A stretch of 64,000 nucleotides of DNA, from positions 1 to 64,000 of the IMG/VR virus record IMGVR_UViG_3300009378_000005; one strand, 5' to 3'. The notes below the pieces were generated by a model, which saw only the letters and a program-made list of their open reading frames with translations, made no database searches and was not told the DNA's origin. This document shows positions 30,945-57,700 of the stretch, in pieces. The stretch comes from an uncultured virus (IMG/VR IMGVR_UViG_3300009378_000005) (lineage: Duplodnaviria; Heunggongvirae; Uroviricota; Caudoviricetes). How positions within the stretch are numbered: position 1 is the first letter of the stretch; each line of letters starts with the position of its first letter. Made by a program: the position numbers and the translations under genes.

Positions 30945-31062
30945 AATATTCTCCTTTATAAAGCTGCTGCTTACTTACTAAATATGTTCGCACTAAGTTT
31001 ATTCTTTTAAAGAAGTGATATATAGTTTAAGAGGTAATTTAAGGTTTAGCTGGGTTCTAAGA

Positions 31063-35700: not shown

Positions 35701-35765
35701 TTACGACTAGACACATCGATTTCTCGTGTGCTTACTCCTGCGCTTCTAAAAACTATTTCAGCCAT
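32715..35765 (-). CDS. Tail sheath protein, paralog 2 (gp18-like)
   Basis: SAGVSTREID, GPAFVPVTV, PWFAPAGFTRG, INPITTFPG..VWGQKTL..LDRVNVRRLL. Confidence 0.93.
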   Translation of the reverse strand: MAEIVFRSAGVSTREIDVSSRKTSTGPIGIPAGVVGTAEDGPAFVPVTVASYKDFASVFGNTDGERFGPLAVNEWLKAAQALTYIRVLGVGDGKKKNSTTGKVTNAGFVVGQKLPQTNGNVGVNTYAVPNGDLGRTHFFGCYMSESAGSTVFSDAGLSHWAMSASSAEYELNGDGCIPILRGILMAASGVIPLLSASTEHATGSNSKPSNTSPAIAGNHGASLQGCITGAVNLSNQEFVLLLNGHKDTDSYPNTLTCSFDLRSSNYFADVLNTDPFKIEESGHYLYSSYDIHPSLAVITGAGYVYPGSGTQLGGTGGPTLEPVAFITTGSHGRNAGTAGTPDYESFETRFSTAKSPYVISQDFGGTKYDLFRVHATDDGAGVSTRFKISIENIQKSTSDTSFFGSFDLIVRDFYDSDDEKVVLEQYRGLSLNPSSDRFIARVIGDQRTFYDFDRNDGSQRLVVEGDHPVQSNLIRIEQSKILKDGAVPDEALPLGSRGHHHLVTSGSQPLHGVGTATQGQLWAGSTDLLHHIVEPPTPLRESVSVGVYPNDRAKSYLYWGVQFTRKESITEPNKIGLHDNTLDSFAKYFPTFRDDVRNVSVGDNAGAADSNGTVLDADRFNNNMFTLERVKVRTGSNGLADPRQWVSASYARQGGITANETTKTRAFKVDDLKNSGNRNFAKFTFFLQGGFDGVNIFNKSKSDLLNNSCMWEMDDSSNQGATDGPTVAAYRKAVDIMETKSDVDIKLLAIPGIRHSSVTDYAVDAVEDRFDALYIMDIEERDNTDQIVTGSLQNVNVGYTVAAFKNRALDTSFAAAYFPDTIVRDPTTLTNVQVPPSVSVLGAFAKNDRIGHPWFAPAGFTRGSLSAERSALPLKRANLDELYDADINPITTFPGTGLVVWGQKTLLSSQSSLDRVNVRRLLIEIRRSVRAVANSLLFEPNRSETLDRFNALVTPILQGIQEKSGVDRYKVVIDTSTTTQADIENNTLRGKIYVQPTRTAEFVALDFMVSNAGAEV

Positions 35766-35800
35766 TTAGAGTTTCTCCACAAATCATAGATAAATATTTC

Positions 35801-38800
35801 TTACTCAAAACTTACCCCAGCTGACGTAATGATAAAGTCTATTGCGATAAATTCAACAGCTCTAGTTGGAACTAGAACAATTCTACCGTTTAGTCGATTT
35901 TGTTCCACGTCTTCAATTGTATTATTAGAACTATCCATTACAACCTTAAATTGATCAATTCCCTGCTGTGTCTGAATAAGAGATAGCAACGGTGTCACCT
36001 GTGAGACAAATCTTGCCCTTGTCTCTGGCGTGTTTTGCTCAAAGACTATCTTGCTTGCTACGTCAGATATTATTCTCTTTGCCTCTAGGAGCATTCTTCT
36101 AACGTTAACCCTGTCAAGAGACGTCTTTGCCTGCTGCAAGGTTTTTTGACCAAAAATAACAAATCCTGCATTTGGGAATGTTGCGATGGGATTTATCTTA
36201 GCCTCATAGAGGTCATTCTTATCGCTTGCATTTAATCTAGCCTTTGTATTCACGACAAAGTCAAGAGCTGCCCTATTAAATCCTGCGGGAGCAAACCATG
36301 GGTATGCTACATTGTCATTAAACCCTAGCGCTCCTAGCGCTGCTATGCTTGCAGGCACCTCAACAGACCTGTTGTTTACAGGATCATTAATTGATACATC
36401 TGGGAAATATGTTGCAACATAATTACTGTCAAGCGCTCTAGCGCTAAATTTCTCTATTGTCTTTTCAACATCAGGTCTTCCCGTGCTATCATAGAATAGC
36501 CTGTTATTATCGCCATCGTAAGCAGGAGTATCGATGATATAGATAGCCTTTCCGTAGTCTTCAACTAGGTCTGTGACATAATCTGTAACATGACTATCTC
36601 TTATTCCAGGAATGACAATAATGTTAACTCGTGATGACATCTCATCTGTCAAAATCTCAGCTGCAGCCCTATATGATCTAACTGTGCTATTGTCCTTACC
36701 TGAGCCCACTGTCATATTTGTTGACAAGCCAATGTTCAATGGATTTCCATCAGTGCTTGATAGATTAGATTCTGACGCCTTTCCTGTGCTATCTGATGAG
36801 CTTGCTCTGTCGTTTAATCGTGACATATCTCTATCAAGAATATTGACACCGTCAAACCCACCGTAGAAGAAGTTTGTAAATTTAGCATAGTTGGTAAACT
36901 TATTAAAGTGCGTAGATCCTGTCAGTGAAATGAGTGACGCAAATGTCAGCCTATCATTTGCTGTTCCATCAGATACAACGTATGTTGTCCCTTTTGGCAC
37001 GCCGTTTCTAATATAACATGCCTCAAGCATGTGATCTTTTGCCGTTCCTGTTATCTGGCTTTCGACCGTCTGATTTAGGCCAGGTCTTCCGCTTCCTGTC
37101 AATGCATCAGATATAACATTTCCTAATGCTACACGAGCCAGTGTAAATTTATTATTATTAAACTCATCAGCACCTGCACCAGTTACAACAAGATCCATCT
37201 TGGAGATTCCAAGAAGCTTGGCATAATTTTCAATAAGCGGGTTTGGCGTGCTTGACACATTAGCATTGAGAATTGACTCATCAAGCGATGAGCTTCTAGG
37301 AACTATCTCAAACTTAGTTCCCCAGTAGAATCTTGCATCAACTCTCTCACTATTTCCTGGTGATCCAGCAAGACCAGATGTCGCAACATTTCCACGAGTC
37401 ACCTTGAACCTATATGGGACAGGAGGTAAAATTGATCCTGACAAGAGAGACTCTGCACCTGCAGCAGCAACACTGCTTCCAGATGATTTTCTAGGAGTGA
37501 ATGCCAGTCTTGACCCAGGATTTCCAAGATTCTGACCCAGTGACGATGTCAACCCTGTAACAGAATTATCTGCTAGCGTCTCAGTTGTCTTTAGTGACGG
37601 AAACCCTCTAAACCCAAAGGGCAAAGCATCTACAGGTACATTTCCATTCTCAGCATCTACATGCATCACGATTCGAACTCTAGATGACACGTTTGCATAC
37701 TTTCCAGACATCAAAAGTCGACGCTCATCTGATGTCTCTGCATCAAAGTTATACGACACCTTTAGATCACCTATCTTTTTAGCAACATAATTTTCATCAC
37801 TGGGATCTAGCGTACATAGAGGGTACTGTTCTAAGACTGACGGATTTGTATCTGTATCACTAAATGATCTTACCTCTACTGTGAAAGTTCCATTCTTATT
37901 TTTAGAGTCTGTAGATTTTCTAATATTAGAGATCGATACCTTGAATTTTGTATTTGCAGATGCTCCGTCAGATAAAGTTTCAAAATGAAATAGATCATAT
38001 TCCTTCTCACCATATGGCTGTGAGATGAACATTGTTGTTCTTGGAGTTGAATATCTTGTGTCAAATCTTCCAAATGCATCTCTAAAGCCCTGATTTGCGG
38101 GATTGTCTGATGAAACAGCGGCTGTACCAGATACAACTGCTACAGAGTATCTGTGATCTGAAACAGGTGCAATCTCATCTTCAACAGGAAAGTGAGAGTA
38201 TAGAAGGTGTTGTTCTTCCTGGAATCTCTCTGGATCTGTATTTAGGACATTTGAAATATAGCTAGGTAGAGACGGATCTAGCGATGCAGTTAACATCTTT
38301 ACGCCTGGTGATCCATCGTGATTGGCAAACTGTGTTGCTGACGATGATATCGCTATCTTGAACGTCTTAAATCTGCTGTCTCCGGTTCCGCTATATACTG
38401 TAGCTGTATCTGCAAAAGCCTCTGCAGTTGAATATGACGAAGTCGCATGTAGAACCTGGATTCTTGTACCTGTGGCACACATTATCATTCCACGAACTAG
38501 ATAGACATAGTCATCACCGCTACTAATTCCATAGCTATCGTTGTCTGTAAAGACAGGAAAGCCTACTGTTTCTCTTGATGCAGAAACAAAATGTCTTGCA
38601 ACCAAAAATTGAACAGCACCTTGATGCCTTGTGTCTCCGGGCGTTCCACCTAGCGCTGAACCCTGTATAACAAATCCGGCGTTCTTAACTACACCCTGCT
38701 GCTCTGTCTTGTATATGTCAGTCGTTGAATCGTTAGACCCAGCACCAAGAACTCTAACAAACGTCAATGCGCTTCTATTCTTTAGAAATTCTCTAACAGC

Positions 38801-39004
38801 ATACGGTCCAAACTTTTTATGATCAAGTGTTCCAAAGCGAGACTTGAAATCACTAAATGAACCAACTGTTACAGGGACAAATGCCGGACCCATCTCTGAC
38901 GTACCTGCAACACCGGCAGGAACACCGACTGTCTCCGCTTCCCTCTGGGATAGATCGACTTCGCGTTCAAAGAATCCGGGCGACTTAAAGATCTGCTCAG
39001 CCAT
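35801..39004 (-). CDS. Tail sheath protein, paralog 1 (gp18-like)
   Basis: SPGFFEREVDLS, GPAFVPVTV, PWFAPAGFNR, INPIATFP..FGQKTLQ..LDRVNVRRML. Confidence 0.93.
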   Translation of the reverse strand: MAEQIFKSPGFFEREVDLSQREAETVGVPAGVAGTSEMGPAFVPVTVGSFSDFKSRFGTLDHKKFGPYAVREFLKNRSALTFVRVLGAGSNDSTTDIYKTEQQGVVKNAGFVIQGSALGGTPGDTRHQGAVQFLVARHFVSASRETVGFPVFTDNDSYGISSGDDYVYLVRGMIMCATGTRIQVLHATSSYSTAEAFADTATVYSGTGDSRFKTFKIAISSSATQFANHDGSPGVKMLTASLDPSLPSYISNVLNTDPERFQEEQHLLYSHFPVEDEIAPVSDHRYSVAVVSGTAAVSSDNPANQGFRDAFGRFDTRYSTPRTTMFISQPYGEKEYDLFHFETLSDGASANTKFKVSISNIRKSTDSKNKNGTFTVEVRSFSDTDTNPSVLEQYPLCTLDPSDENYVAKKIGDLKVSYNFDAETSDERRLLMSGKYANVSSRVRIVMHVDAENGNVPVDALPFGFRGFPSLKTTETLADNSVTGLTSSLGQNLGNPGSRLAFTPRKSSGSSVAAAGAESLLSGSILPPVPYRFKVTRGNVATSGLAGSPGNSERVDARFYWGTKFEIVPRSSSLDESILNANVSSTPNPLIENYAKLLGISKMDLVVTGAGADEFNNNKFTLARVALGNVISDALTGSGRPGLNQTVESQITGTAKDHMLEACYIRNGVPKGTTYVVSDGTANDRLTFASLISLTGSTHFNKFTNYAKFTNFFYGGFDGVNILDRDMSRLNDRASSSDSTGKASESNLSSTDGNPLNIGLSTNMTVGSGKDNSTVRSYRAAAEILTDEMSSRVNIIVIPGIRDSHVTDYVTDLVEDYGKAIYIIDTPAYDGDNNRLFYDSTGRPDVEKTIEKFSARALDSNYVATYFPDVSINDPVNNRSVEVPASIAALGALGFNDNVAYPWFAPAGFNRAALDFVVNTKARLNASDKNDLYEAKINPIATFPNAGFVIFGQKTLQQAKTSLDRVNVRRMLLEAKRIISDVASKIVFEQNTPETRARFVSQVTPLLSLIQTQQGIDQFKVVMDSSNNTIEDVEQNRLNGRIVLVPTRAVEFIAIDFIITSAGVSFE

Positions 39005-42129: not shown

Positions 42130-42228
42130 TTTTTAGCTCTCTATTGATGAACGCACTTCTATTATTAATTATCTACACGACATGAACGATTCCTAAAACA
42201 GCGTGGTCATTTACTAAAAACTTAACGC

Positions 42229-42260
42229 AAAGAAAGCTCGGACGTTATCATTCCGAGCTC
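42229..42260 (-). terminator. Probable intrinsic terminator
   Basis: AGCUCGGA-9 nt loop-UCCGAGCU followed by UUCUUU. Confidence 0.6.
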
Positions 42261-42351
42261 TCAGTCAGCTTCTGTTTATCACCACAACTAATATCTGATG
42301 TAAACCATTGCTTTGCTATTAAGGTAGATCTGTGTTAAATCTACATAAATA

Positions 42352-42807
42352 TTAGTTTGCTGCTGTATTGACGAATGTCAGTGTTCCGCTAGATGCTAGA
42401 ACCTGATACTGACGACCGTCACATAGCAGTGTAACTGCTGCACCAACAGTTCCTGTTAGCTTTAACTGACCACCATCTAGACGATGGTCAGGAAGACTTC
42501 CGCTACCCTCTCTGGCTCCAAGCCCTGAGGCGCAGAAAATTGACCTTCCATCGACATCAGAGCCAGTTAAACTGTGAACTGGGCTTGTGAGTGACCTAAA
42601 CGTCCACAGTGAGCCTGGTACATCAGCTGCCTTTGGCAGTGTTGCAGTTAGTGGTGATGTTGAGTTAAATGTATAAACACCACCTCTAGATACTGTGGCA
42701 TTTGCTGTTAGTGACGTTACGTCATAGACGGGAGCCTCTGCAAATTCTATTCCTGACCCTGGCTCTTGGACCAAACCTTTGCTATTTGTTACTTTAACCT
42801 TAGGCAT
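42352..42807 (-). CDS. Probable virion structural protein
   Basis: Beta-rich, G/S/T-rich 151 aa upstream of the neck genes. Confidence 0.5.
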   Translation of the reverse strand: MPKVKVTNSKGLVQEPGSGIEFAEAPVYDVTSLTANATVSRGGVYTFNSTSPLTATLPKAADVPGSLWTFRSLTSPVHSLTGSDVDGRSIFCASGLGAREGSGSLPDHRLDGGQLKLTGTVGAAVTLLCDGRQYQVLASSGTLTFVNTAAN

Positions 42808-42812
42808 GATAA

Positions 42813-43100
42813 TTAATTCCTTTTATTTTTCTTATTTTTTGAGGTGACGCTACCCAACATATCACTAACTGATTTCTTCTTAGGTTTTTCAGCTACAACA
42901 GACCTCTTTTGTGAGACAGGTTTTGCGGGCGTCGGCTTCGCGACAGGTTTCACAACCTTTACCTCAGGAGCATCTTGCTTCAACTCTTGAACAACAGTTC
43001 TTGGCTTTTCATCCGCAGAGACATCATTCTTTACCGGCATTCCATTCTTGTCAACCTTTGTAACCTTACCAAATACCTTTCTTATGGCCCTAATGCCCAT
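42813..43100 (-). CDS. Lys/Pro-rich low-complexity protein
   Basis: GAGGA RBS; late motif upstream; KPVAKPTPAKP. Confidence 0.6.
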   Translation of the reverse strand: MGIRAIRKVFGKVTKVDKNGMPVKNDVSADEKPRTVVQELKQDAPEVKVVKPVAKPTPAKPVSQKRSVVAEKPKKKSVSDMLGSVTSKNKKNKRN

Positions 43101-43194
43101 CTTAACATCCTCACTCTATTGAGATTATTTCATCAAATATAAATATACAGATATTGGCAAACTGATCAGTAGAGGATACCACTTTAATAAAATA

Positions 43195-43530
43195 TTAGTG
43201 AATTACGATCTCTCTCACCTTGTCTCTCATATTATATCTCTCCATCGACATAACTGCACCGTAGGCACCTGCATTCTCAATCAGGATGACATCTCCGGGC
43301 CTTGTCTCAGGCATCAATCTATTAAATCCCATCACATCTCCGCTCTCACATATGGGACCAACGATCTGATATCTGCTGGCAGGTTCATCATTGAGCCTTG
43401 ACAGGTTAAAGATCTCGTGATGCGCCTCATACATCGCTGGGCGGATGAGCGTGTGCATGCCGGCATCAATTCCAATGAACCTGAGGTTGTTCTTCTTTCT
43501 TACCTGAGCCCACACTGTGTCCGAGACCAA
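43195..43530 (-). pseudogene. lysA: C-terminal fragment of diaminopimelate decarboxylase (LysA-like)
   Basis: IDAGMHTLIRPAMYEAHH, IVGPICESGDV, GDVILIENAGAYG..YN; the N-terminal PLP barrel is absent. Confidence 0.8.
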
Positions 43531-43978
43531 ATGCTGCGTGCGGATCTATGCTTCCCAAATCAGAAATGCTTATTTGACCTGTAGCTTTCCAGCTATCATG
43601 AGACTCACGAGGGTGTGCTTCATCGCATGATTGTCCTTCATGATCGCTGTGAAGTACTTCCATCCCAGTATCATTATCATAATCTTCATATTCTTGCTCA
43701 CCAGAAAGACTATCAACAACACCTTCAAGAGCAGATCTAGTAGCTGGACAAGACGTATCATTTGCTATAGCCATGACAGCCTTAAGCGCCTCTTGTCTAG
43801 TAAGTGGTGATCCAGGTCCATCATCAGGTAGCACATCTGGTGAAACTCTAGACATAAGACTGACCTCACCATGTCCAGGGTCTTCAGCTCCAGCTGCACA
43901 AGGTCCGCACATCTCTATCAAGATATTATTAACTTCGTTCAGTATTAGATTTTTGAACTGTCTTTTAGTTATTCTCAC
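43466..43978 (-). CDS. Acidic hypothetical protein with N-terminal MRITKRQFKNLILNE motif
   Basis: Motif shared with neighbours; 3' end runs out of frame into the lysA remnant. Confidence 0.65.
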   Translation of the reverse strand: MRITKRQFKNLILNEVNNILIEMCGPCAAGAEDPGHGEVSLMSRVSPDVLPDDGPGSPLTRQEALKAVMAIANDTSCPATRSALEGVVDSLSGEQEYEDYDNDTGMEVLHSDHEGQSCDEAHPRESHDSWKATGQISISDLGSIDPHAAFGLGHSVGSGKKEEQPQVHWN

Positions 43979-44252
43979 GATCTCTCCAGCTTAATGATCC
44001 ACCAGGAATTTTTCTTGATCCTGGAAAAGGCTCTGTTATAAATTCTTCTTTTTCTTCTTCGCTTGGTCTATATGACCCGGGATTAAGTATATCAGCAGCA
44101 TAAACTATAATCTTATATGCCTCTTCTTTGCTCCACTCAGATGATAACGTTGATGCGAGATTCTCAGATGCCTGAAGGATTTCATATTCTTTATCCGAAT
44201 CCTCATAAACCTCTTTAATGATTCTTTGAAGCATTTTTTGTGAGACTTTCAT
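43965..44252 (-). CDS. Hypothetical protein with N-terminal MKVSQKMLQRIIKE motif
   Basis: Shared leader motif suggests the start is at 44252. Confidence 0.6.
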   Translation of the reverse strand: MKVSQKMLQRIIKEVYEDSDKEYEILQASENLASTLSSEWSKEEAYKIIVYAADILNPGSYRPSEEEKEEFITEPFPGSRKIPGGSLSWRDRENN

Positions 44253-44259
44253 GATATGA

Positions 44260-44667
44260 TTATATTTCTCCCTCATCATACCCTAGTACGGTTCTATGAA
44301 TCATGCTACTGAGCGCTGTGTCGAATCCCTCTTGTATCTCTATTTCTCTAGGCCATGATTCTTCACCAGTACTTGATGAGTGAACAATATGTCTGACCTT
44401 CATATATGCCCTCGCTATTGGATCAATTGAGCTTCTAGCCTCTGACTGAAGAATGTTCATAGTTACATTAAAAGCTTCATCAGATAGCGCTCCCCATTTT
44501 TCTCTGGATCGTTTTTCTTCTTCTCGTCTTTCTAGTGATCGTATCGCTTCAGGTTCTGGTGCATCAAATATACTAGCACTTTCAGACTCACCTGCGACCT
44601 CTTCACTCTCTATTTCTTCAAATGCCTCTAGAATGATTTTCCTAAGTTCATTTTTTGTGACTCTCAC
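44260..44667 (-). CDS. Hypothetical protein with N-terminal MRVTKNELRKIILE motif
   Basis: GGAG RBS before GTG at 44667; shared leader motif; late motif upstream. Confidence 0.65.
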   Translation of the reverse strand: MRVTKNELRKIILEAFEEIESEEVAGESESASIFDAPEPEAIRSLERREEEKRSREKWGALSDEAFNVTMNILQSEARSSIDPIARAYMKVRHIVHSSSTGEESWPREIEIQEGFDTALSSMIHRTVLGYDEGEI

Positions 44668-44833
44668 AGCTATCTCCAAAAAGTAATTCAGATATAACTA
44701 TTTACTTCACAATGAAATAATATGATGTCAATATGCTTATTGTACCATTATACAGCTAGTGATTGTGACAGCCCACGATATGAAAAGTATTGTACCAAGA
44801 ACAGCTGCAAATAGAGACTCACTATCAACTTTT

Positions 44834-45157
44834 TTATCGTGTGTGTCTGTGATGACTATGTCCCTGCCTGTGGTGGTTGTGTCCCTGTCTGTGATAATGT
44901 CGATTAGCTGGCGGACCCTGCTTATGTGTTCTATATGATTTACCAAGTGACTTGTGATTCCAATAGCCCCCGTTCCATCTATATTTTCTAACGATAGTGT
45001 TTTTTCCTACACCGTATTTTAGATATGACCAGTAACCAGGAACCCAGATCCACCCGGATTGAACGCTGACTGAAACTCCACTTCTAGCTGATGTGTGAGC
45101 GTGTGCTGAACAGCTAGTTCCAAAAAAACTAAGGGCAGCTAATAGCATAAACTTCAT
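44834..45157 (-). CDS. Exported or lipoprotein-like WXXGXW-repeat protein with His-rich tail
   Basis: Signal peptide ending near FGTSC; WIWVPGYW and RWNGGYW; HRQGHNHHRQGHSHH; AGGAG RBS. Confidence 0.7.
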   Translation of the reverse strand: MKFMLLAALSFFGTSCSAHAHTSARSGVSVSVQSGWIWVPGYWSYLKYGVGKNTIVRKYRWNGGYWNHKSLGKSYRTHKQGPPANRHYHRQGHNHHRQGHSHHRHTR

Positions 45158-45197
45158 GTTAAACTCCTATATATGATGCTTACATATATTATAAGCT

Positions 45198-45425
45198 TTA
45201 GGGCTGCCTTTCATTCAATTTTTTATTAAAAAAGTTTATTTTTTCTTCTTCAAGCCTGTCTGCTAGCCTTATAACATTAGTAGAAAATGTTTCTGTAAAC
45301 AGAAATGGAACTATTGCGTGAATCACGCTAACAAAAAGCATCATTGCTGACCACACAGCAAATCCAAAAGATCTGTAGAAGTGTCCTAGATATGTCATGT
45401 CCGTATCTTTTAAATGTTTAAACAA
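45198..45425 (-). CDS. Small membrane protein (DUF6356-like)
   Basis: HLKDTDMTYLGHF..IHAIVPFLFTETFS pattern. Confidence 0.6.
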   Translation of the reverse strand: MFKHLKDTDMTYLGHFYRSFGFAVWSAMMLFVSVIHAIVPFLFTETFSTNVIRLADRLEEEKINFFNKKLNERQP

Positions 45426-45464
45426 AATTTTACCTTTTATTTTATAACTATTTCACTAAGATAT

Positions 45465-45492
45465 AAAAAGGGCCGGTCGAAAGACCGGCCCT
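45465..45492 (-). terminator. Intrinsic terminator closing the large ncRNA
   Basis: AGGGCCGGUC-UUUC-GACCGGCCCU followed by a U tract. Confidence 0.9.
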
Positions 45493-46165
45493 AGATGGGG
45501 GAAAAGCGCAGCATACCTCGCTTTTCATTCTCGTGACCCTCAACTCCGCTTGAATTCGAAGCTGTCCCTTTTGGTTAGAGGTGCACACACCGACCTGTAA
45601 AGCCGTTCACGAGCTTTCTCCCTGTTCTTAGGCTGTAATACCTACGGAACAGCACGCCCTACTATCGCCATGACATTCTGCGTTCTCTTGAGTGAGCTGT
45701 ACACTTCACCTCGTGATCGCGCGCCCTGCTTCCAAACCTTGGGAGCATATCCACAGGACCCCTTTCGGGACGGTGGTCTTGTTGCCAATTCCACCAGAGA
45801 GACTTCTGTCACCGACAGTTAGATTCTGAAGAGAGTTAACCCTTCTTCCCAAGACATCATAGCCTTTCGGCTTCTTGGATTGCCCTTGTCCCGTTTCCAC
45901 GATGAACCTACAAGTCCATGGATACCCTCGGTAGCACTTCCCTAGCGGAATAGGGACTCATACCTTAGGCCACTGAACGACTTCGAAAGTTCCACCTTCC
46001 TTAACTCGTCCCTCCTCTTAGTGAAGCGGCATGACGTAAGAACGTCACCTTCTCCATCGGAGTTTTCTCTATCCTAATACCAAAAGATATTAGATCCAGG
46101 AGCCAGTAACTCCACCTGGATTTTTGGACCCGAGAACATGGGTCACATAAATTTTCAAAGAACTA
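45465..46165 (-). ncRNA. Large (~690 nt) structured non-coding RNA of unassigned class
   Basis: GC-richer than its flanks with no credible ORF; at least 12 hairpins (e.g. AUCCAGG/CCUGGAU, CUAAUA/UAUUAG, UGACG/CGUCA, CCCUA/UAGGG, AGCC-GAAA-GGCU, CUGUC/GACAG, GGUGG/CCACC, CUGUUC/GAACAG, GAAAAGCG/CGCUUUUC); bounded by a promoter and a terminator. Confidence 0.8.
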
Positions 46166-46198
46166 TAGAAGTATATACCTTCTACTTCTGTTGTACAA
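46150..46198 (-). promoter_or_regulatory. Sigma70-like promoter followed by an rrn-type boxA-like sequence
   Basis: TTGTAC (46198-46193), 17 nt, TATACT (46175-46170), then AGTTCTTTGAAAA immediately after the predicted start. Confidence 0.65.
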
Positions 46199-46200
46199 AA

Positions 46201-46755
46201 TTATACATCTTGTCTCTGCGATGTTTTAATGCCCGCGATTCTTTGCTTTTCTCTATATTCTGGTGTTCTAAGTGTGGCACATCTCTCATCATAGTTATCC
46301 TTCCATCTCTTTTTTGCAGCTCGGCTATAGTTTTCTCTATGTGTGGCAGTTCTAACCTTTCCATAGTTTGGAGAATTAATTCCTTTTTTGCCATACATGC
46401 CGTTATTTTTACCTATTGATGAGTGGCCTGAAACGTATTTCGCGAAACCTCCTTTGTTATATCTTACTTTCTCTCCGCAGCCACACTTGCACACGGGCCA
46501 TTTGCCATCGTGATTAAACTTAACAATATAGTCTACAAACTCTACCTGATGTTCTTTTCTTACGTGTCTTGCGAGAACATTGTTTGTATTTGCAACTCGT
46601 TTATTGCAGATATTACAAGACAATTTAAACTCAACACTCTTGTCATATAGCTTTTCTGCAATATCCTTATGCCAATAACCGATATGCGACCCTATTGATC
46701 TTTTTGTATTGCTTAGCAGTTTATCGCAGTATTCACACTTTACTTTTTCTACCAT
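46201..46755 (-). CDS. Zinc-finger/NUMOD3 nucleic acid-binding protein with no recognisable nuclease domain
   Basis: CEYC..H..H, CNIC..H..H, CKCGCG..KYVSGH, GKNNGMYGKK, NSPNYGKVRT; GAGG RBS. Confidence 0.75.
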   Translation of the reverse strand: MVEKVKCEYCDKLLSNTKRSIGSHIGYWHKDIAEKLYDKSVEFKLSCNICNKRVANTNNVLARHVRKEHQVEFVDYIVKFNHDGKWPVCKCGCGEKVRYNKGGFAKYVSGHSSIGKNNGMYGKKGINSPNYGKVRTATHRENYSRAAKKRWKDNYDERCATLRTPEYREKQRIAGIKTSQRQDV

Positions 46756-46773
46756 ATTTACCTCTACATAGTA

Positions 46774-46802
46774 ATAATATAGTATGAATAGATTTTTGTA
46801 AA
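46774..46802 (-). promoter_or_regulatory. Sigma70-like promoter for the zinc-finger gene
   Basis: TTTACA, 17 nt, TATTAT directly after the capsid terminator. Confidence 0.5.
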
Positions 46803-46813
46803 CTACTTAAAAT

Positions 46814-46841
46814 AAAAAAGGAGGGAGCAAAAGCTCCCTCC
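46814..46841 (-). terminator. Intrinsic terminator after the major capsid gene
   Basis: GGAGGGAGC-UUUU-GCUCCCUCC followed by a U tract. Confidence 0.9.
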
Positions 46842-46863
46842 CCGTTCATTAGATGAACTTTTT

Positions 46864-48795
46864 CTAGATCACATTGAGATCAAGCACCGTCACAGTGCCG
46901 TAGAAGTCAGCACGAACCATCTTTTTGCCGTATCGAGTCATCACTCCCTTGCGAGGCGTGAAATCCTCTGGAGCAAAGATCGTCGGTGTGACAATTAATG
47001 GTACGTACGGAGCGTAAACGTATCCTGTCTCAAGGTAGCTACCGCCCTTATAACCAACAAGAACCTTGTTGCGTGGGAAGTAGGGGTCCTTATAGACCGT
47101 GAAACGGTTGCTCAGCGTACCGACCGGAGCTGCACCGAGTGTGAACGGATTACCAACCTGACCGTCGCCGTCAAGACTGTAGTTAGGCTTGTAAAGAACT
47201 GATGCCTCGAATACCGTTGACACCTCAGGTGAGCAAACGATGAAGTTTGCAGAACCGCGAAGAGTCTTACGGTGAATCTCATTAGCGACATCGATGATCG
47301 TCTCAACTAGCGTCTCATACCACTCACGGACCGTACCTGTGAAGCTAGGACCGGAAGCTAGAGTGCTAGAAAGAGTAGCCTCTGTACCGTTTGTCTTGTT
47401 AACGAACTTACCTGGCATGCGTGACCAGTAGTAGTTAGCACCTGCTGCCTCGACCAGGAGATCGTTTAGGATCTCACGGTCGATCTCAAGAGCTACCTGC
47501 TCAGAGAGGATCTGTGTTAGCTCGACCTCAGCATCCATGCTGTGGTAGGCGTTAAGATCCTGTGCGAGCTCTGGTGACCAGCGAGCACGTAGCTTGCGTG
47601 TCTGAGCTGTTACAGCGATTGACTCGATCTTGATGTCGATCTCAGGGATCGCCGGGGAGGGCGATGACGCGAAATCAGACTCAAACGATGGAATCGTGAG
47701 AGCAGAGCCGTCAGATGTATCGATGTCAAGTGACGCAGCCAATGCGTATGATGCAGTTAGGTTAGCAACACCAGCCGGATGGGCCTTGTGAGATCCTGTA
47801 ACAACAACAAGAAGAGCGGCATTTGCAGACGTTCTTCCAATGAGAGGATCTGACGTGAACTGACCGTTAGCATATGTTCCCACCTGGTTCAGACGTCTGA
47901 CGTTAACAAGGTTCTTGCCACCCTGAACTGACTCAGGTACGGCTGAAAGACCGTTTCCGCCTCCGCCTTGATCTGAACCGAGGTCAGCATCTGTGAACAG
48001 TGAGACATCCTTAGCCTGTGTTGTATCCATAGAGTTGAACACTGAGGAGGCTAGATCAAGAATCACGAACTGGAACTCACCAGTTGTGTTCTGTGCTGTG
48101 TCATCGTCAATGAGGTTTGTTAGCTGTGGATCGAACTGTAGAAGTCGACCGTCAGTACCCGTTGATGCACAGACGCGACCATCTTGTAACGTTGAGTTAC
48201 CCTGGAAGGCACCTGATGCCAAGACGTTTGATGTCTGAACAATAGATGAGCTGTGAACCTTGGTATACGATGTTCCAACTAGATCATACTGACCACCGAC
48301 AGCCAAAGATCCGCTTTGGACACCCTTGCCTGTGGGGTTGTTGTAGATCGACTGACCCTTACCGTATGTCTGCGCATTTGCTGCACCTGCGGCACCTGTC
48401 TGGAGATTTGAATCACCGCCGATGCGGGTTCCATATGTGTAATCCAGATAGAAGAGCAGACCAGAGGGAAGGCTCATAGGCTGAATTGATACCAACTCAT
48501 TAGATACGAGACCACCGAAGACCCTGCGGACGATCGGGAAGGCGATGTTTGTGAAACCACGAAGATCGCCAGATGTTGTCATGTTTGCTGCGCCTGTTGA
48601 CAGAGAGTTTTGCTCTCTTAACAGCTGTGCAGCCTGATTCTCAAGAAGTCGAGACATGATCTCTCTATTGTGATCAGCGAGACCACGAAGAAGACCTGTT
48701 CTAGACCACTTTTCAATCAGTCGTTGACCTTCAGCACCGACATTTCTCTGCCTGATGCCTTCTGTCAACTGTTCTAGTGTAAATGATTTTGCCAT
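46864..48795 (-). CDS. Major capsid protein (T4 gp23-like)
   Basis: LLENQA, FPIVRRVF..LVSIQPMSLPSGLLFYL, TRKLRARWSPELAQDLNAYH..AEVEL..EIDREI, YAPYVPL, FTPRKGVMTRYG. Confidence 0.97.
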   Translation of the reverse strand: MAKSFTLEQLTEGIRQRNVGAEGQRLIEKWSRTGLLRGLADHNREIMSRLLENQAAQLLREQNSLSTGAANMTTSGDLRGFTNIAFPIVRRVFGGLVSNELVSIQPMSLPSGLLFYLDYTYGTRIGGDSNLQTGAAGAANAQTYGKGQSIYNNPTGKGVQSGSLAVGGQYDLVGTSYTKVHSSSIVQTSNVLASGAFQGNSTLQDGRVCASTGTDGRLLQFDPQLTNLIDDDTAQNTTGEFQFVILDLASSVFNSMDTTQAKDVSLFTDADLGSDQGGGGNGLSAVPESVQGGKNLVNVRRLNQVGTYANGQFTSDPLIGRTSANAALLVVVTGSHKAHPAGVANLTASYALAASLDIDTSDGSALTIPSFESDFASSPSPAIPEIDIKIESIAVTAQTRKLRARWSPELAQDLNAYHSMDAEVELTQILSEQVALEIDREILNDLLVEAAGANYYWSRMPGKFVNKTNGTEATLSSTLASGPSFTGTVREWYETLVETIIDVANEIHRKTLRGSANFIVCSPEVSTVFEASVLYKPNYSLDGDGQVGNPFTLGAAPVGTLSNRFTVYKDPYFPRNKVLVGYKGGSYLETGYVYAPYVPLIVTPTIFAPEDFTPRKGVMTRYGKKMVRADFYGTVTVLDLNVI

Positions 48796-51420: not shown

Positions 51421-51684
51421 TTATAGATCCTTCATGATCTGCGACTTGATCGCATTTCGAATTCGCCTGACACGCTTTAAGTTTTTGATTAATCTCGCCT
51501 CAGCCAATCCTAGCTTTTTGGCATGGTCAATCTTGTGAGATAGTGTTCCTGCAAGAGAATCAGCATCGACCTCTTTTGCATCGTCAGATGATGCGCCAGG
51601 AAGCCCAGACTCTTCTAACTTTCTCTTTTCATCAAGAACCATCTGCTTTAAAAGATCAGATGTTAGCTTCTTTACAGTTGACAT
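51421..51684 (-). CDS. Small head-module protein with KLTSDLLKQMVLDE leader
   Basis: AGGAG RBS; shared leader motif. Confidence 0.65.
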   Translation of the reverse strand: MSTVKKLTSDLLKQMVLDEKRKLEESGLPGASSDDAKEVDADSLAGTLSHKIDHAKKLGLAEARLIKNLKRVRRIRNAIKSQIMKDL

Positions 51685-51742
51685 GATAATTCTCCTAATA
51701 TATGCATGAAATACATATTCTAGAATTTAAAAACTATTATGT

Positions 51743-52198
51743 CTACCGTGACTTATTTGTGCTATCTGAAAATGCTAGTGCCGCCCAGTTTCCAGCTGAC
51801 TCACTAAACAGATCGAGGGGATCACTCTGTGCTGCAATCATCGAGGCCCTGTCGCTTGTCGGACCAGTTCTCGTTGACGATGCCTGCTCCTGGAGAGTTG
51901 TAAGAGCTGTATCTTTAAATATTGACGCCATGACAGGATCAGATGTCATCGCTGCTGCCGCTGATTCAGCAAGGACTGACTCATCCTGGCTGTCGTCTCT
52001 ATTTTGACCCCACTCTATTCTATCAAGTGACTGTGACCGACCTGACACCTTGGGCTCTTTTATCGTTGTCATCTGTGAACGATCTTCAACACGTGATGTC
52101 TGGATGATTGATGTCCCGCTAAGACCTTCTTGCAATATTTCAACAAGACATTCCTTGACGATTCCCTTTAAGTCACCCTTGCTTAATCTTTTACTCAT
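51743..52198 (-). CDS. Head-module protein with LSKGDLKGIVKE leader
   Basis: Directly downstream of the prohead protease; shared leader motif. Confidence 0.65.
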   Translation of the reverse strand: MSKRLSKGDLKGIVKECLVEILQEGLSGTSIIQTSRVEDRSQMTTIKEPKVSGRSQSLDRIEWGQNRDDSQDESVLAESAAAAMTSDPVMASIFKDTALTTLQEQASSTRTGPTSDRASMIAAQSDPLDLFSESAGNWAALAFSDSTNKSR

Positions 52199-52203
52199 CT
52201 TTT

Positions 52204-53874
52204 CTACCAGGATAAAATTTCATTAAAAATTCTATCAATCTTATCCGTCTTAGTAAAAATCCTATCTAGATCTTTTTGATCTATCTTTCTTGATTCACGA
52301 AGCATGAAAGCACCGGGCGTGCTTGGCTCAGATACCATATCAAAGCAGATTAATTGAAAATCTTCCTGGACGATCTGGCTATCTCCTTGCTGTCTTGTAG
52401 ACCCTACACCTCTAGATGAAATACCCAGAGTCACGCCAGATTCAACCAGGCTCTGTAAGATCTTTCCACTGGGTGTGTTAAGTAGCTCAATTGATCCAAC
52501 AACGGCGTCACCTTCCATCCTTGCCTCACGAATAATGTGAGATGCATTTTTTAACTCAACAACACTATGTTCTGGATGATCACAGTTACCTGTCCAAAAT
52601 TGCTTGCCGTTTCTTCGTGCCATCCAGTTTCCATTAGGTGTTGTAACACAGTAAACATTGCTATCATGATCAACTTCATCAATTTTCATGAATCTTAGGT
52701 CTAGACCAATGTGCTTTGCATGATTTTCAGATATCAGCCACATTGGCTTTGAATTCTCAGCAAGAATCATCCTTCCAGGCTCAATCTCTCTATCTTTTTG
52801 TAAATATGATCTCGTGTTGCTTCCAACTCCAAGCTTCATAAATAACTCACTCACATCTTGAGCAAGCTCAGGAGATGTAGTGCAATACTCTCTAACAAGC
52901 CTTCCTCTAATTACTCTATTTCTTCCATCACCTATCAAAAGCCACGTCATCAATGTTTCAAGATGCTCTTTAGACCACTCTAGAATCTCATCCGGTATTC
53001 TCTTTTGTGAACTATGCCCTAGCTCATAAAGATAGCTGTGCAAGCCTTTATGAGAGCATGTAAAGTCAATTGTTTCACCGTCTGCTCTAGCACATTCTCT
53101 CCACTCTAGCGGCATATCCCTAAGAAGATCACGAATCATCTTTACGTTCTCTGCCTTCTTTTGTGTTATCTGCACCTTATTAGAAGAAGAATAACCACTC
53201 TTTGTTCCAGCTGCACAGCCTTCAGAAATGTATATTCCCATAAAGCCCGCCCAGACGTGAGGATCGACATTTAAGTCAGTTCCAGGTATGTTATATATCT
53301 CTGGAGTTTCTCCAACCCATTCTGACCTGAAGCTTAAACCGCAGTGTGATAACCAGCTTGATTCCTCATTATACAGATCATAAACTGACTGTGCTGTCAT
53401 ATACGTCGGCTTATTGTTCCTGTCATATAACAGCACCTTGTGGTCAGGCGTTAACTTCATATCAAGAGATCTAGCATTGTAAAAATGAAGCATTTTTCCA
53501 CTATAGTGCTTATTTGTAATGTGAAGTATCTCTTGTTCTTTTAGCTCATTTGTTTCTGTATTTAATGTAAATACTCTATCATCTGGTCTTAGGTCTTTGA
53601 AGTTTAACCAGCCTCTCTTTGTAAAAATTTGAGTCTCTTCATCGACGCACTCACCCAAGGCCCTATTTTCCTTAATAAATTTTTGATAATTAAGAATCTC
53701 TCTCTCAAGAATCGATATAGGATATATCCTTCCGTTTTGGTTTACCGTATTTGCACGTTGCAAAACGCCCTTTAAAACAACCTTTCCGCCATTTCTATCT
53801 CTTGACTCTTTAATTGTCTGTGCACTATACTGTAGCGGAGTCCACTCAGTAAGAAGCTGTAGCTTATTTTCCAT
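52204..53874 (-). CDS. Prohead protease (T4 gp21-like), intein-containing; mature protein ~201 aa
   Basis: GVLQRA..NQNGRIYP..RALGE|CDHP..SH..LLNTPSGKIL..GISSRGVGS..FDMVSEPSTPGA. Confidence 0.93.
   Translation of the reverse strand: MENKLQLLTEWTPLQYSAQTIKESRDRNGGKVVLKGVLQRANTVNQNGRIYPISILEREILNYQKFIKENRALGECVDEETQIFTKRGWLNFKDLRPDDRVFTLNTETNELKEQEILHITNKHYSGKMLHFYNARSLDMKLTPDHKVLLYDRNNKPTYMTAQSVYDLYNEESSWLSHCGLSFRSEWVGETPEIYNIPGTDLNVDPHVWAGFMGIYISEGCAAGTKSGYSSSNKVQITQKKAENVKMIRDLLRDMPLEWRECARADGETIDFTCSHKGLHSYLYELGHSSQKRIPDEILEWSKEHLETLMTWLLIGDGRNRVIRGRLVREYCTTSPELAQDVSELFMKLGVGSNTRSYLQKDREIEPGRMILAENSKPMWLISENHAKHIGLDLRFMKIDEVDHDSNVYCVTTPNGNWMARRNGKQFWTGNCDHPEHSVVELKNASHIIREARMEGDAVVGSIELLNTPSGKILQSLVESGVTLGISSRGVGSTRQQGDSQIVQEDFQLICFDMVSEPSTPGAFMLRESRKIDQKDLDRIFTKTDKIDRIFNEILSW
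52585..53649 (-). mobile_element. Intein with LAGLIDADG endonuclease (355 aa) in the prohead protease
   Basis: CVDEETQIFT, LTPDH, FMGIYISEG and LMTWLLIGDG, VYCVTTPNG..WTGN|C. Confidence 0.92.
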
Positions 53875-54731: not shown

Positions 54732-57700
54732 TCAATCCTCCTCTGATGAATTATCGTTCTCAGAGATCACCCTTCTACGATTACTTATGGTGTTCCCAAG
54801 AGATTTTAATGACGACCTTACGTCTGATGTCATTTTATTCTGCGTTTCTATCTTATCATCTATCATGTCCATAAACTCTGCATCATCCATCTCAGACAGG
54901 GTGGGAATTGAAACCCTCACAAGTCCTCTGAGGTCTGATCTGTCTTGATATCTCTTTTGTTTCATCCCAAATGGGTGTGTGATTGAGTCAGATGCGTTAT
55001 TTCTGTCATGTGAAACGATCCGAGAATGATCTGTGTCATTATTGTTTCTACCTCTTCTACGTTTTCTCTTCTCATCCTCAACTTCAGCCGGTGTCTTATC
55101 GTCGTCGTCATCATCGTCATCAACAACCTCAGAGAGCCTATCAACCGTTCCCTGTGCTGTTATCGGAGATGTCTCATCCCTAATTGATAGAGAGCCAAGA
55201 TCAATCTCGTCGAACTCCCTGACTCCAGAAGATGTTAGAAGGTCAAGTCCAGAGCTATTTCTGTCATCTCCCGCAAGGGCTAGATCAGCTACGGCAGGCT
55301 CCTCATCTTCAGGCTCCTCAGATTCTGGACCCATTGCTAGCTCATCTGCTCCCTCTGGCTCATCACCAGGTAGGTGGACAGCCTCGACCTTGAGATCCAT
55401 CAGCCTGTCACCGAACCTTCCCTTGGAGATCTTATCTATCTCATCGTCTGTCATGTTAAAGATGTTTCTTCTTAACCACTCTCTGTCAACAAGCCCTTCT
55501 ATTCCGGATGCTGACCCTGCGATCTCGAATCTTGACCTAAACAGCTCTAGCTTCTGCTGCTGTGCGATAGTGCTTGGGTTAGATAGCTGTAATGTGAAAT
55601 CTAGAAGATCCTCACCCTCAAACCCATTGCAGAACAGGTGAATGATAGCTATCTTATTCATCTCTGCAATTATTGTTCTCTGGATTCTTGCAATGGTTCT
55701 TGAAAAACGTATGTCTTCTTGAGAGTTATGAACAAATATTTCTGCAGCGAGAGCAAAGTTATGATGTGTGTCAACAGTTATGTCATAAACCAACTCTGGC
55801 TCATCTAGCTTTACTATCTCAATATTTGCAATCTTATGGTTGGAATTAATGTTATCTTCTAATAAATTGTCTTCACAATGTGTCATCGGGCTTTCACCAA
55901 TACTTAAGTCCTCTGCATTTGTGTATAGACCATCTTTCATTAAAAACGGGTGATTATCTGTGCATTCAACAATTTTGCCATTGTCGAGTGTAACTCTATA
56001 AAGCTCAGTGACCTCTTTTGTAGCCCACGCGTTTGTGATATTTCCGAATGTTGTTCTCTTATTATCATGATCATATGAATAAACTTTTAACTTTTTGCCA
56101 TCATTAAATTCATTTACAATATCCAGAATAGAAAGTTTTCTTCCGTCAACAAGGCATATTTCTGTATTTCCTCTCAGGCATAGTGTTGCCTTTGCACCCA
56201 GGCCTTCATCATAGCCTAGATATGCCTTAGGAATCTTTAACGCTGCAAATAGCTTCTTCTGGATGTATTCGACGTCCTCGATAGCTGTTGCATTTGCCCC
56301 GCCGGCAAGTGTATCGATCTTGGTGCCTGACTCTCCGCCGCGAACGGGAAGATAATAATCCTCATCGACCGAATTCTTAATAAAAACCCCAGATTCTATT
56401 CTCTGATCATCAGAAAAGCATCTAGAATCGCCCGGAGTTGCAAAGTTATGGTAACCTTCAATTGTTACTGCACCTACATTCTCAGTATGATCTAGAACCT
56501 CTACACATACAACTTTATGATTAGCATACGAAGCAGCTTGTTTCATCTCAGATCGTGTTTTTCCAGACATCCACGTCCAGTAACAATCTTGTGAGCAAAA
56601 TGTTTTATAGCTCTTTATATCTGTATCACAGCCCCGGCATGCAGAATTTGGCTTATTAAATTTTCCGCCAGATAGATAGGTTGTATCAAATGATTTACCA
56701 GTATACCCGTGCGACTGCAGTATTCTCATAAAATCATATCGACTTATTCCAAAATGCCTGATTATGTCATTTCTAGAAATGTTTATACTGTTACTAGCAT
56801 ATATTTCTATTTCTTTCCAAGGGGCACGTAATGAAGCATAATAATCTTTTACTTCTCTTAGATTCTTGAACCCATTTTTTCTAAGTTGCTGTATGAATTG
56901 ACCTTTTGACAATTTATCATTAAATCCATTTTCAAAATTTTCATTCAGAGACCTAAGATAAGAAGTAAAATTATTGTCATTATTTAACCAGGTTCTTACC
57001 TCATATTCTCTAGCAGACGTTGTTAGTTCATTTAATGCTTGGATTACATGGTGAATTAATTCAGAATTTGTTTTAAGAGTTAGAGCATTTACTCTTTTTT
57101 CTCTTATTTCACTATTTTGCCACATCTTTGTATAAATTTCTGGATTTAGCTTTCCAGCTTCCCAAAGATTGATCATGTTTTTTCTAGATGCTTTTCTTCC
57201 AGCGGACGACTTGTTTCTCTCTACGCAGTAATCTCCGTGAATCTTGTGATGTTCTTTCCATGTGCATGGATGCAAGTTATTAGGAGAGTTATTTGTTTTA
57301 TCGAAATCTACATGATGAACAACTTTTCCTTTAATTGCTTCAAAACCAGATTCAGCTATTATATTTGCTCGATGTGTATAAACATAATTTTGTGAATATG
57401 GATCATAGATCATTTCATATCCATCAATTACTCGCTTATCATCACCTTTCTTTGACCAGCGCTTGTATAGTGGCATCAATGCATCATTTTCGCTTAGATT
57501 CTGTGCTTCACAGTATTCTCCATTACGAAGCATGAATTTATGATCAGGAGTTACATCAAGCCATTTATTGTTATCTAAATGAACCCTTACTAATTTTGCA
57601 TTTTCTTTTGTTATCCCCGCCCACATTACGCGGCCAGGAGCTAATTTCTTTCCATCGCGATCAATAGAATATACCCATTGATCTTTTTGGCCGTTACTTC

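Follow-up and report, generated by a model that had tools for sequence, protein, structure and literature searches.

What does the only gap of at least 450 nucleotides (nt) without an open reading frame (ORF; cut-off, at least 70 amino acids (aa)) encode in a 64-kb stretch of viral DNA? The stretch, positions 1 to 64,000 of the uncultured virus record IMGVR_UViG_3300009378_000005 (hereafter the window), comes from a 76-kb IMG/VR record with an estimated completeness of 23% and carries genes for terminase, portal, protease, a gp23-type major capsid protein and tail sheath. The nearest deposited relatives of the capsid protein, at no more than 50% identity, are the far-T4 phages Flavobacterium phage immuto, Microcystis phage Mel-JY01 and Rhodothermus phage RM378. 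An earlier sequence-only reading had described the gap as a structured non-coding RNA gene next to the capsid gene, belonging either to a divergent GOLLD or ROOL type or to a new class of large phage RNA. After collecting homologues and analyzing their covariation, we are nearly certain that the locus belongs to a family of structured RNA genes, and this family is shared by many uncultured marine T4-like jumbo phages. We consider it likely that the locus encodes a large, ornate non-coding RNA of these phages that represents a class not described before.

The predicted transcription unit and its covarying fold

Conserved stretches were spotted through hairpins with differing yet complementary arms in contigs from public RNA runs and were recast as DNA patterns. 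Three scans with such patterns yielded more than 150 homologous loci, all on marine viral or metagenome contigs, the marine origin being judged from record names (TARA and other marine sets) and from the organism labels of the runs. The pattern matches in IMG/VR were confirmed as homologues by nhmmer in 3 of 12, 11 of 11 and 25 of 25 cases. Metagenome contigs contributed at least 120 loci, all 120 among the matches listed being homologues, and a genome collection gave three matches, all homologous, on contigs (14-306 kb) that carry the label of metagenome-assembled genomes. One contig so labelled (101,404 bases) is probably the same contig as an IMG/VR viral contig, with an identical nhmmer match. 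A further pattern, GCTCCCAAGGTNTGGAAGCAGGG, was over-strict and returned 2 loci only. The structural set consisted of 67 distinct full-length copies, with pairwise identities of 52-94% (median 0.71), 119 invariant columns among 560 ungapped ones and a constant module order in 67/67.

The consensus structure computed from these copies with RNAalifold contains 134 pairs in 27 helices. Compensatory double changes occur in 101 of these pairs compared with 39-51 in slid controls, in which the partners were shifted by 1-3 columns; these controls favour the derived structure because they were counted on the same alignment. Helix cells are paired in 97.1% of cases versus 82.0% in shuffles, and 0 of 500 shuffles reached any of five measures. 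Six crossing helices were proposed by a scan of all column pairs and then scored separately. These pseudoknot or kissing-loop helices (PK1 to PK6) comprise 37 pairs, are 98.9% paired and show 21 double changes compared with 1-8 when slid. The sequence-only reading had named homologue collection and covariation as checks on its proposal, and both came out in its favour.

All elements of the RNA gene are present on the minus strand, from window position 46198 to 45465. The region has a GC content of 0.49, compared with 0.40 for the window, and folds with z = -7.2 on the minus strand and z = -4.1 on the plus strand (each against shuffles; n=20). Its elements are as follows.

46170-46198, minus strand: putative sigma-70-like promoter, -35 TTGTAC at 46198-46193, 17-nt spacer, -10 TATACT at 46175-46170
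45497-46163, minus strand: conserved RNA body, about 667 nt here and 613-680 nt in homologues (median 655)
46152-46163, minus strand: boxA-like antitermination motif GTTCTTTGAAAA, 5′ end of the conserved RNA
46127-46144, minus strand: hairpin 1 (GACCC/GGGUC), whose loop UUCUC (46136-46132) pairs with GAGAA (46069-46065) as PK1
46015-46042, minus strand: PK2, hairpin loop UUCUUA (46042-46037) with UAAGAG (46020-46015); double changes in 4/6 pairs, 98.2% paired
45945-45995, minus strand: PK3, kissing loops of two adjacent hairpins, GUGGAA (45995-45990) with UUCCGC (45950-45945)
45820-45910, minus strand: PK4, UAGGUUC (45910-45904) with GAAUCUA (45826-45820); double changes in 3/7 pairs, 99.6% paired
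45738-45853, minus strand: PK5, CUUGGGA (45853-45847) with UCCCAAG (45744-45738), about 110 nt apart; double changes in 4/7 pairs, 99.4% paired
45661-45819, minus strand: long-range helices H16 (45819-45813 with 45667-45661) and H17 (45810-45807 with 45675-45672)
45622-45652, minus strand: H24, the most conserved hairpin, stem CUGUUC...GAACAG flanked by GGGAG; 7/11 pairs invariant
45529-45614, minus strand: 3′ domain with H25 (45614-45608 with 45535-45529) around H26, H27 and a variable insert
45501-45526, minus strand: 3′-terminal hairpin, whose loop (45516-45511) pairs with GUGUGC (45588-45583) as PK6
45465-45492, minus strand: extra, lineage-specific intrinsic terminator, AGGGCCGGUC-UUUC-GACCGGCCCU plus UUUUU

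The promoter proposed by the sequence-only reading is present at 46198-46170 and overlaps the 3′ end of an upstream 184-aa ORF; a consensus scan calls the same site TGTACA-16-TATACT with 9/12 matches. That scan found 6 promoter-like sites in a 2.2-kb region where 4.0 were expected, and the match is therefore weak by itself. In the alignments, a TATACT/TATAAT-like -10 element is equally spaced in several homologues that have no upstream transfer RNA (tRNA) gene. Conservation among the homologues starts at boxA and stops after the 3′ hairpin. The hairpin-rich interior of about 650 nt was likewise borne out, with all three of its GNRA loops located: GAAA within GCC-GAAA-GGC near 45868, GAAA within CCC-GAAA-GGG at 45766-45763, and GCAA at 45785-45782. 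So was the strong terminator, a hairpin at 45492-45469 with 10 pairs (8 of them G-C) followed by TTTTT, which is also found in the close copies L094 and L084 and in altered form in L091. In many homologues, the 3′-terminal hairpin with its U run forms the terminator, as seen from U tails in the alignments.

The tertiary contacts differ in how their variation is distributed. PK1 shows double changes in 5/5 pairs with 99.7% of cells paired, the changes being confined to a few divergent copies. PK3 shows them in 2/6 pairs (22 and 3 sequences; 98.2% paired), and compensating variants of its second hairpin also occur in RNA-library contigs. PK6 shows them in 3/6 pairs, in 24-30 sequences each. H16 and H17 have 4 double-change pairs each, are 98.9% and 97.7% paired and enclose a central domain of about 150 nt that contains the GCAA and GAAA hairpins; H25, H26 and H27 have 5, 4 and 4 such pairs. 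The CUGUUC/GAACAG stem of H24 was intact in the 5 copies inspected of 7 that lack the exact recruiting motif and were recruited by an unrelated pattern. Part of the invariance of H24 arises by construction, because two scans recruited members with the H24 motif.

Two structural ideas were set aside. Local hairpins around 45818-45806 and 45675-45663, considered as a switch, were 91.8% paired, barely above shuffles and weaker than H16/H17. Look-alikes of an 11-nt GNRA receptor, of a T-box-like GGUGGNACC and of a T-loop-like UUCGAAU were seen by eye only and are not conserved in the family.

The boxA-like motif and signals in marine RNA libraries

The sequence-only reading had listed the 5′ motif AGTTCTTTGAAAA, which is present, but its identity went unrecognized there: it corresponds to the boxA of ribosomal RNA (rRNA) operons. 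In Escherichia coli rrnH, a loose TCTTT-N-A-N-A pattern matches twice only, at TGCTCTTTAACAA in the leader and at TGCTCTTTAAAAA between tRNA-Ala and 23S. The consensus GYTCTTTRAMAA, which covers both rrnH sites and the RNA site, occurs once in the window, at the RNA, where 0.11 occurrences were expected, and a looser boxA form stands at the same 5′ position in 63/67 homologues. This puts a boxA-type sequence close to the start of a long RNA that is not translated. According to PMC4807359, BoxA is bound by NusB/NusE and acts against Rho, and judging from the motif we lean toward a functional boxA here. In homologous loci such as L157, the order of tRNA, boxA and large structured untranslated RNA mirrors the rrn spacer. 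The phage RNA shows no resemblance to 16S or 23S rRNA and matches no rRNA model, and Nus binding is predicted from the motif; a family hidden Markov model found no match in E. coli rrnH, a weak negative with 0 residues past any filter. RNAalifold pairs the boxA UCUUU (46161-46157) with GGGAG (45621-45617).

Part of the window stretch occurs in 20 public runs from 13 studies, comprising 6 RNA and 14 DNA runs. Four RNA runs from four studies gave 3, 32, 131 and 96 contigs on 44600-47599, 80 to >99% alike, with the RNA covered at 45500-46199; two of the four also cover the capsid part at low depth. Many variants occur among the RNA-run contigs, one hairpin region showing indels and one segment being replaced, and the contigs span module borders (for example, 45564-45822 and 45795-46012). 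Their summed depth reaches up to hundreds. Contig depth was zero on 44600-45499 and 46200-46899, which was not used as evidence since the contigs come largely from relatives with other flanks and an uncovered part has no evidential value.

Other identities and genomic surroundings

The absence of a credible ORF, claimed from the sequence, was upheld. Frames in the RNA region reach 83 codons at most, counted between stops. In the 67 copies, the longest run without a stop codon measures 92 aa (median), and none of the 24 stretches of at least 100 aa found in these copies and six frames is conserved. Two candidate frames were rejected. For an 11-codon ORF behind a Shine-Dalgarno-like GGGAG (GUG at about 45610), the G-to-A change that makes an ATG in one subgroup is compensated in H25, changes in H26 rewrite the peptide, and one copy has a 2-nt insert. 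Of a 208-aa antisense frame in the homologue L098, the nearest relative keeps only 135 aa.

The Rfam covariance search that the sequence-only reading had proposed returned no family, with GOLLD, ROOL, OLE, RNase P, transfer-messenger RNA (tmRNA) and introns included. Across the whole window, 0 families of Rfam 15 reached gathering score, those of RNase P RNA, tmRNA, rRNA, signal recognition particle RNA and 6S RNA included; only terminator look-alikes were returned in 45300-46400 at E up to 10, and only flanking tRNAs in 14 diverse members at E up to 0.5. Intron models had no match at the same thresholds in the window region and the 14 members, and a 12.6-bit match to RF01998 (group-II-D1D4-1) lies elsewhere in the record only. 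ARAGORN found zero tRNA or tmRNA genes in the window. The sequence-only reading had seen no hallmarks of RNase P, tmRNA or group I or II introns, in agreement with these scans. The RNA unit is flanked by genes or tRNAs, brings its own promoter and terminator and never interrupts a gene.

Of the two assignments offered by the sequence-only reading, the covariation and the lack of an Rfam match support a new class of large phage RNA, whereas the model searches spoke against a divergent GOLLD or ROOL. The GOLLD model RF02032 (416 positions, gathering 150 bits) was without a match (E up to 1) when run on 5 records that carry the RNA, one of them the window's. The ROOL model RF03087 (574 positions, gathering 99.1 bits) had none in the 5 records under the same limit, but this single-model negative is weak because the control was found nowhere (0/14 control genomes); the full Rfam scans were also without ROOL. 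A literature search found no description of this RNA. Five motifs had no match in six supplementary files of PMC10690425, a source of 10,006 candidate viral RNAs of which three large files lay outside the search, so that a partial, unnamed overlap is possible. We consider it very likely that this class of RNA has not yet been described.

Sequence searches delimit the family further. BLASTN of the window RNA and two divergent members gave no match in 50,697 GenBank phage records, nhmmer gave no RNA match in 80 capsid-related IMG/VR loci, and BLAST across 48 whole capsid-related records gave a 30-nt terminator match only. A covariance model of the 3′ domain (R1) detected exactly one RNA copy in each of 4/4 RNA-bearing records. 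On the five nearest deposited phages (immuto, Mel-JY01, RM378 and two uncultured huge phages), its only hit was a 12-bit match inside a Mel-JY01 ORF, which was judged to be noise since the core hairpin is missing.

tRNA genes occur in the fetched flanks of 29/67 loci, and 69/69 of these tRNAs lie on the strand of the RNA. At 11 loci, no more than 60 nt separate the RNA from the end of an upstream tRNA. The RNA lies downstream of tRNA-Met in L157 and L154, and in L157 it is set between tRNA-Met and tRNA-Gly with gaps of 6 and about 12 nt.

The proximity to the capsid gene is real in the window, but direct adjacency, as the sequence-only reading had it, did not hold, and the neighbourhood is not conserved. 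Between the capsid gene (46864-48795) and the RNA stand the capsid gene's own terminator (46843-46818) and the following ORF.

46201-46755, minus strand: 184-aa zinc-finger ORF (Pfam zf-BED, E 1.6e-4), upstream neighbour, outside the RNA

In complete relatives, about 100 kb separate the RNA from the capsid genes; in one of them, the 293-kb genome G056, it is found among tRNAs. We therefore regard its capsid neighbourhood as incidental. The 184-aa ORF is missing beside the RNA in other lineages. It has a BED/C2H2-type zinc finger and Gly/Lys-rich repeats, with relatives in 22/80 capsid-related loci, sometimes twice per locus, and looks like a mobile DNA-binding gene. Recurrent neighbours of the RNA, each in 8-11 loci, are an FKBP isomerase, a cytidylyltransferase-like protein and, in one subgroup, PIN-PhoH. 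The FKBP-type isomerase is near the RNA in 11 loci, and the PIN-PhoH gene, of the RNA helicase and nuclease type, lies directly downstream on the same strand in 8 loci of a divergent subgroup (e.g. L127:1516-2982).

Several further features of the region were recorded. The region from the capsid gene to the head-tail adaptor gene (42130-46863) is a variable hot spot, 4.7 kb long here and 0.77-5.7 kb in relatives, with little common content. Just downstream of the RNA, 45198-45425 (minus strand) encodes a 75-aa DUF6356 protein (E 7e-14) with no relative in the 80 capsid-related loci. At 43195-43978 (minus strand), there are two overlapping ORFs, the first of which corresponds to the C-terminal sheet domain only of Orn/DAP/Arg decarboxylase (E 1e-21); this gene is split or decayed, and GC is raised there to 0.46-0.49. 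Within the portal ORF (54732-59696, minus strand; 1654 aa), two stretches resemble HNH endonucleases and one piece resembles a helicase, a pattern suggestive of inteins or of homing elements that have been inserted, and the prohead protease ORF (52204-53874, minus strand) has a PhoH/helicase-like N-terminal part. At 32715-39004 (minus strand) stand two tail-sheath paralogues in tandem, each of about 1000 aa, and a homing endonuclease gene lies on the opposite strand at 31015-32718 (plus strand). G056 also has a tmRNA (72354) and two tandem capsid paralogues (176269-180147), each 67% identical to the window capsid protein. In G043, a complete 298-kb relative that lacks the RNA, a GC-rich (0.54 vs 0.43) ORF-free gap of 385 nt (111428-111812) and a 300-nt gap with a boxA-like site (51491-51790) may be other non-coding RNAs.

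Comparison with known RNAs, rival explanations and significance

GOLLD RNAs exceed about 800 nt and are conserved in their 3′ part and variable in their 5′ part. Like them, the present RNA is phage-encoded and found near tRNA islands, but it measures about 660 nt and is conserved over its full length, not in the 3′ half only. The stable RNAs of phage T4 (species 1 and 2, rnaC/rnaD) are non-coding, of unknown function and co-transcribed with phage tRNA genes; at about 120-140 nt, they are set apart by size and architecture from the multi-domain RNA of about 660 nt described here. The RNA resembles ROOL in being a phage RNA of 613-680 nt, with tRNAs beside 29/67 loci and six covarying tertiary helices. 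It differs from ROOL in that the ROOL model does not match, in its boxA start and in its hosts, which are marine T4-like jumbo phages and not rumen or Lactobacillales phages. OLE RNA (RF01071) is, in the excerpts available, an ornate and highly conserved RNA of about 600 nt with an incompletely known function. In contrast to the present RNA, which is phage-borne, has no Rfam match and has no OapA/B/C genes nearby, it is bacterial (Bacillota) and acts with the OapA/B/C proteins at the membrane. In context, size, complexity and abundance, the RNA is closest to ROOL and GOLLD; by sequence and model tests, it is a member of neither.

The accessible part of PMC12286853 describes ROOL and GOLLD as phage-borne, abundant RNAs near tRNA islands, of unknown function and recently shown to form RNA-only cages. 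ROOL is there encoded by phages or prophages, measures about 580-660 nt, has many pseudoknots and no known protein partner, and the kissing loops of GOLLD, first seen by covariation, proved to be intermolecular (PMC12286853). We propose a putative mechanism. Host sigma-70 RNA polymerase would initiate at the phage promoter or, in relatives, would read through from an upstream tRNA. As in rRNA operons, the first 12 nt would serve as a boxA and attract the NusB/NusE antitermination complex; antitermination would make the untranslated transcript Rho-resistant and might aid folding during synthesis. The 3′ end would be set by the intrinsic terminator or, inside tRNA arrays, by tRNA processing. The folded RNA would then accumulate as a compact particle acting in trans, like ROOL and GOLLD, and some of the covarying loop contacts may join copies into a multimer, as covariation cannot separate intramolecular from intermolecular contacts. 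The most likely site of action would be the translation or tRNA side of host takeover.

Several observations weigh against this interpretation. The helices and the pseudoknots were both derived and counted on one MAFFT alignment, and recruitment of members by exact motifs accounts for some invariance by construction. The matches in RNA libraries are assembled contigs without ends or strand, and RNA libraries can hold DNA, so that they are no proof of transcription. The helix predicted between boxA and GGGAG has zero double changes, and boxA may or may not be free to bind Nus factors. The RNA is absent from 48/48 capsid-related phage records by BLAST and by R1, two of these records having a completeness of 90% or more, so this phage group can do without it. 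The RNA-less G043 still has 14 tRNAs, which weakens an obligatory link to tRNAs. No neighbour protein family occurs in more than 13/68 loci, and consequently no partner protein is evident.

For the function of the RNA, a self-assembling particle, a ribonucleoprotein (RNP) scaffold and a ribozyme are live options. A self-assembling particle of the ROOL/GOLLD kind, suggested by analogy, is a tentative possibility. More speculative still is the combined proposal of a third independent self-assembling RNA particle (or new natural ribozyme) in phages, ocean-wide, in which some kissing loops would form between copies and which would act on tRNAs or ribosomes in infection; an rRNA-like antitermination complex would make it and at the same time chaperone its folding. 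An RNP scaffold, or a decoy that holds host proteins such as ribosomal proteins, RNA polymerase or defence nucleases in the manner of OLE or 6S RNA, appears unlikely. The invariant helix CUGUUC/GAACAG, with 7 never-varying pairs, points to recognition of a specific sequence, contig depths in RNA libraries add up to hundreds, and OLE functions as an RNP in the excerpts available. However, the neighbouring protein genes are not conserved (at most 13/68 loci), and the FKBP isomerase, cytidylyltransferase-like and PIN-PhoH genes are each limited to 8-11 loci. A natural ribozyme that cuts, joins or modifies RNA, for example in the maturation or repair of adjacent phage tRNAs, is rather less probable. 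It would fit the complexity of the RNA (27 helices, 6 pseudoknots and 119 invariant columns, many of them unpaired), which is in the range of RNase P and self-splicing introns, and the RNA and the tRNAs always have the strand, and often the transcription unit, in common. Nevertheless, no Rfam ribozyme family matches, no conserved cleavage or ligation junction could be identified, phages with 14 tRNAs manage without the RNA, and ROOL and GOLLD are as complex while catalysis is not reported for them in the accessible part of PMC12286853.

The remaining alternatives concern what the locus is. That it yields a precursor, with several small structured RNAs in a row behind one boxA that are cut apart, is improbable: local hairpins make up the 5′ third and flanking tRNAs imply active processing enzymes, but covarying long-range helices (H16/H17, about 150 nt; H25, about 80 nt) and PK1, PK4 and PK5 (67-115 nt) bind the parts together, the module order is the same in all 67 full-length copies, and RNA-library contigs bridge the module borders. 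For these reasons, we favour one RNA, which may still be processed, over a row of small RNAs. A true GOLLD or ROOL homologue too divergent for the Rfam models is very improbable. It would share the ecology and context, being phage-encoded beside tRNAs and following tRNA-Met in L157 and L154, and the accessible part of PMC12286853 gives 659 nt for ROOL env-120 and a marine GOLLD downstream of tRNA-Met; against it, neither model matched at E up to 10 in the window region, 0.5 in the 14 members or 1 in the 5 records, this last search being weak for ROOL with its negative control. We can practically dismiss a decayed protein gene or a remnant of an intron or mobile element. The variable hot spot between two conserved structural genes, beside a mobile-looking zinc-finger ORF and a decarboxylase fragment, would suit such a remnant, but there is no conserved frame, the changes are compensatory in helices and not codon-periodic, no intron family matches and no gene is interrupted, and the flanks vary between lineages while the RNA is present in a single copy per genome.

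A large, ornate non-coding RNA of a class of its own thus remains our preferred reading. To our knowledge, there are few large, highly structured bacterial or phage RNAs of unknown function, namely OLE, GOLLD, ROOL and raiA, and each has opened new biology or architecture. Here, a phage RNA family as complex as those is common in ocean metagenomes and has matching contigs in ocean RNA libraries, and the 67-sequence alignment with its pseudoknot map makes it an immediate target for cryo-electron microscopy and biochemistry. Because its context is common with ROOL and GOLLD and its sequence is not, the role of giant phage RNAs beside tRNAs becomes testable by comparison. Moreover, the boxA at the start of the RNA suggests that, for RNAs outside the ribosome, phages have borrowed the machinery of rRNA antitermination.

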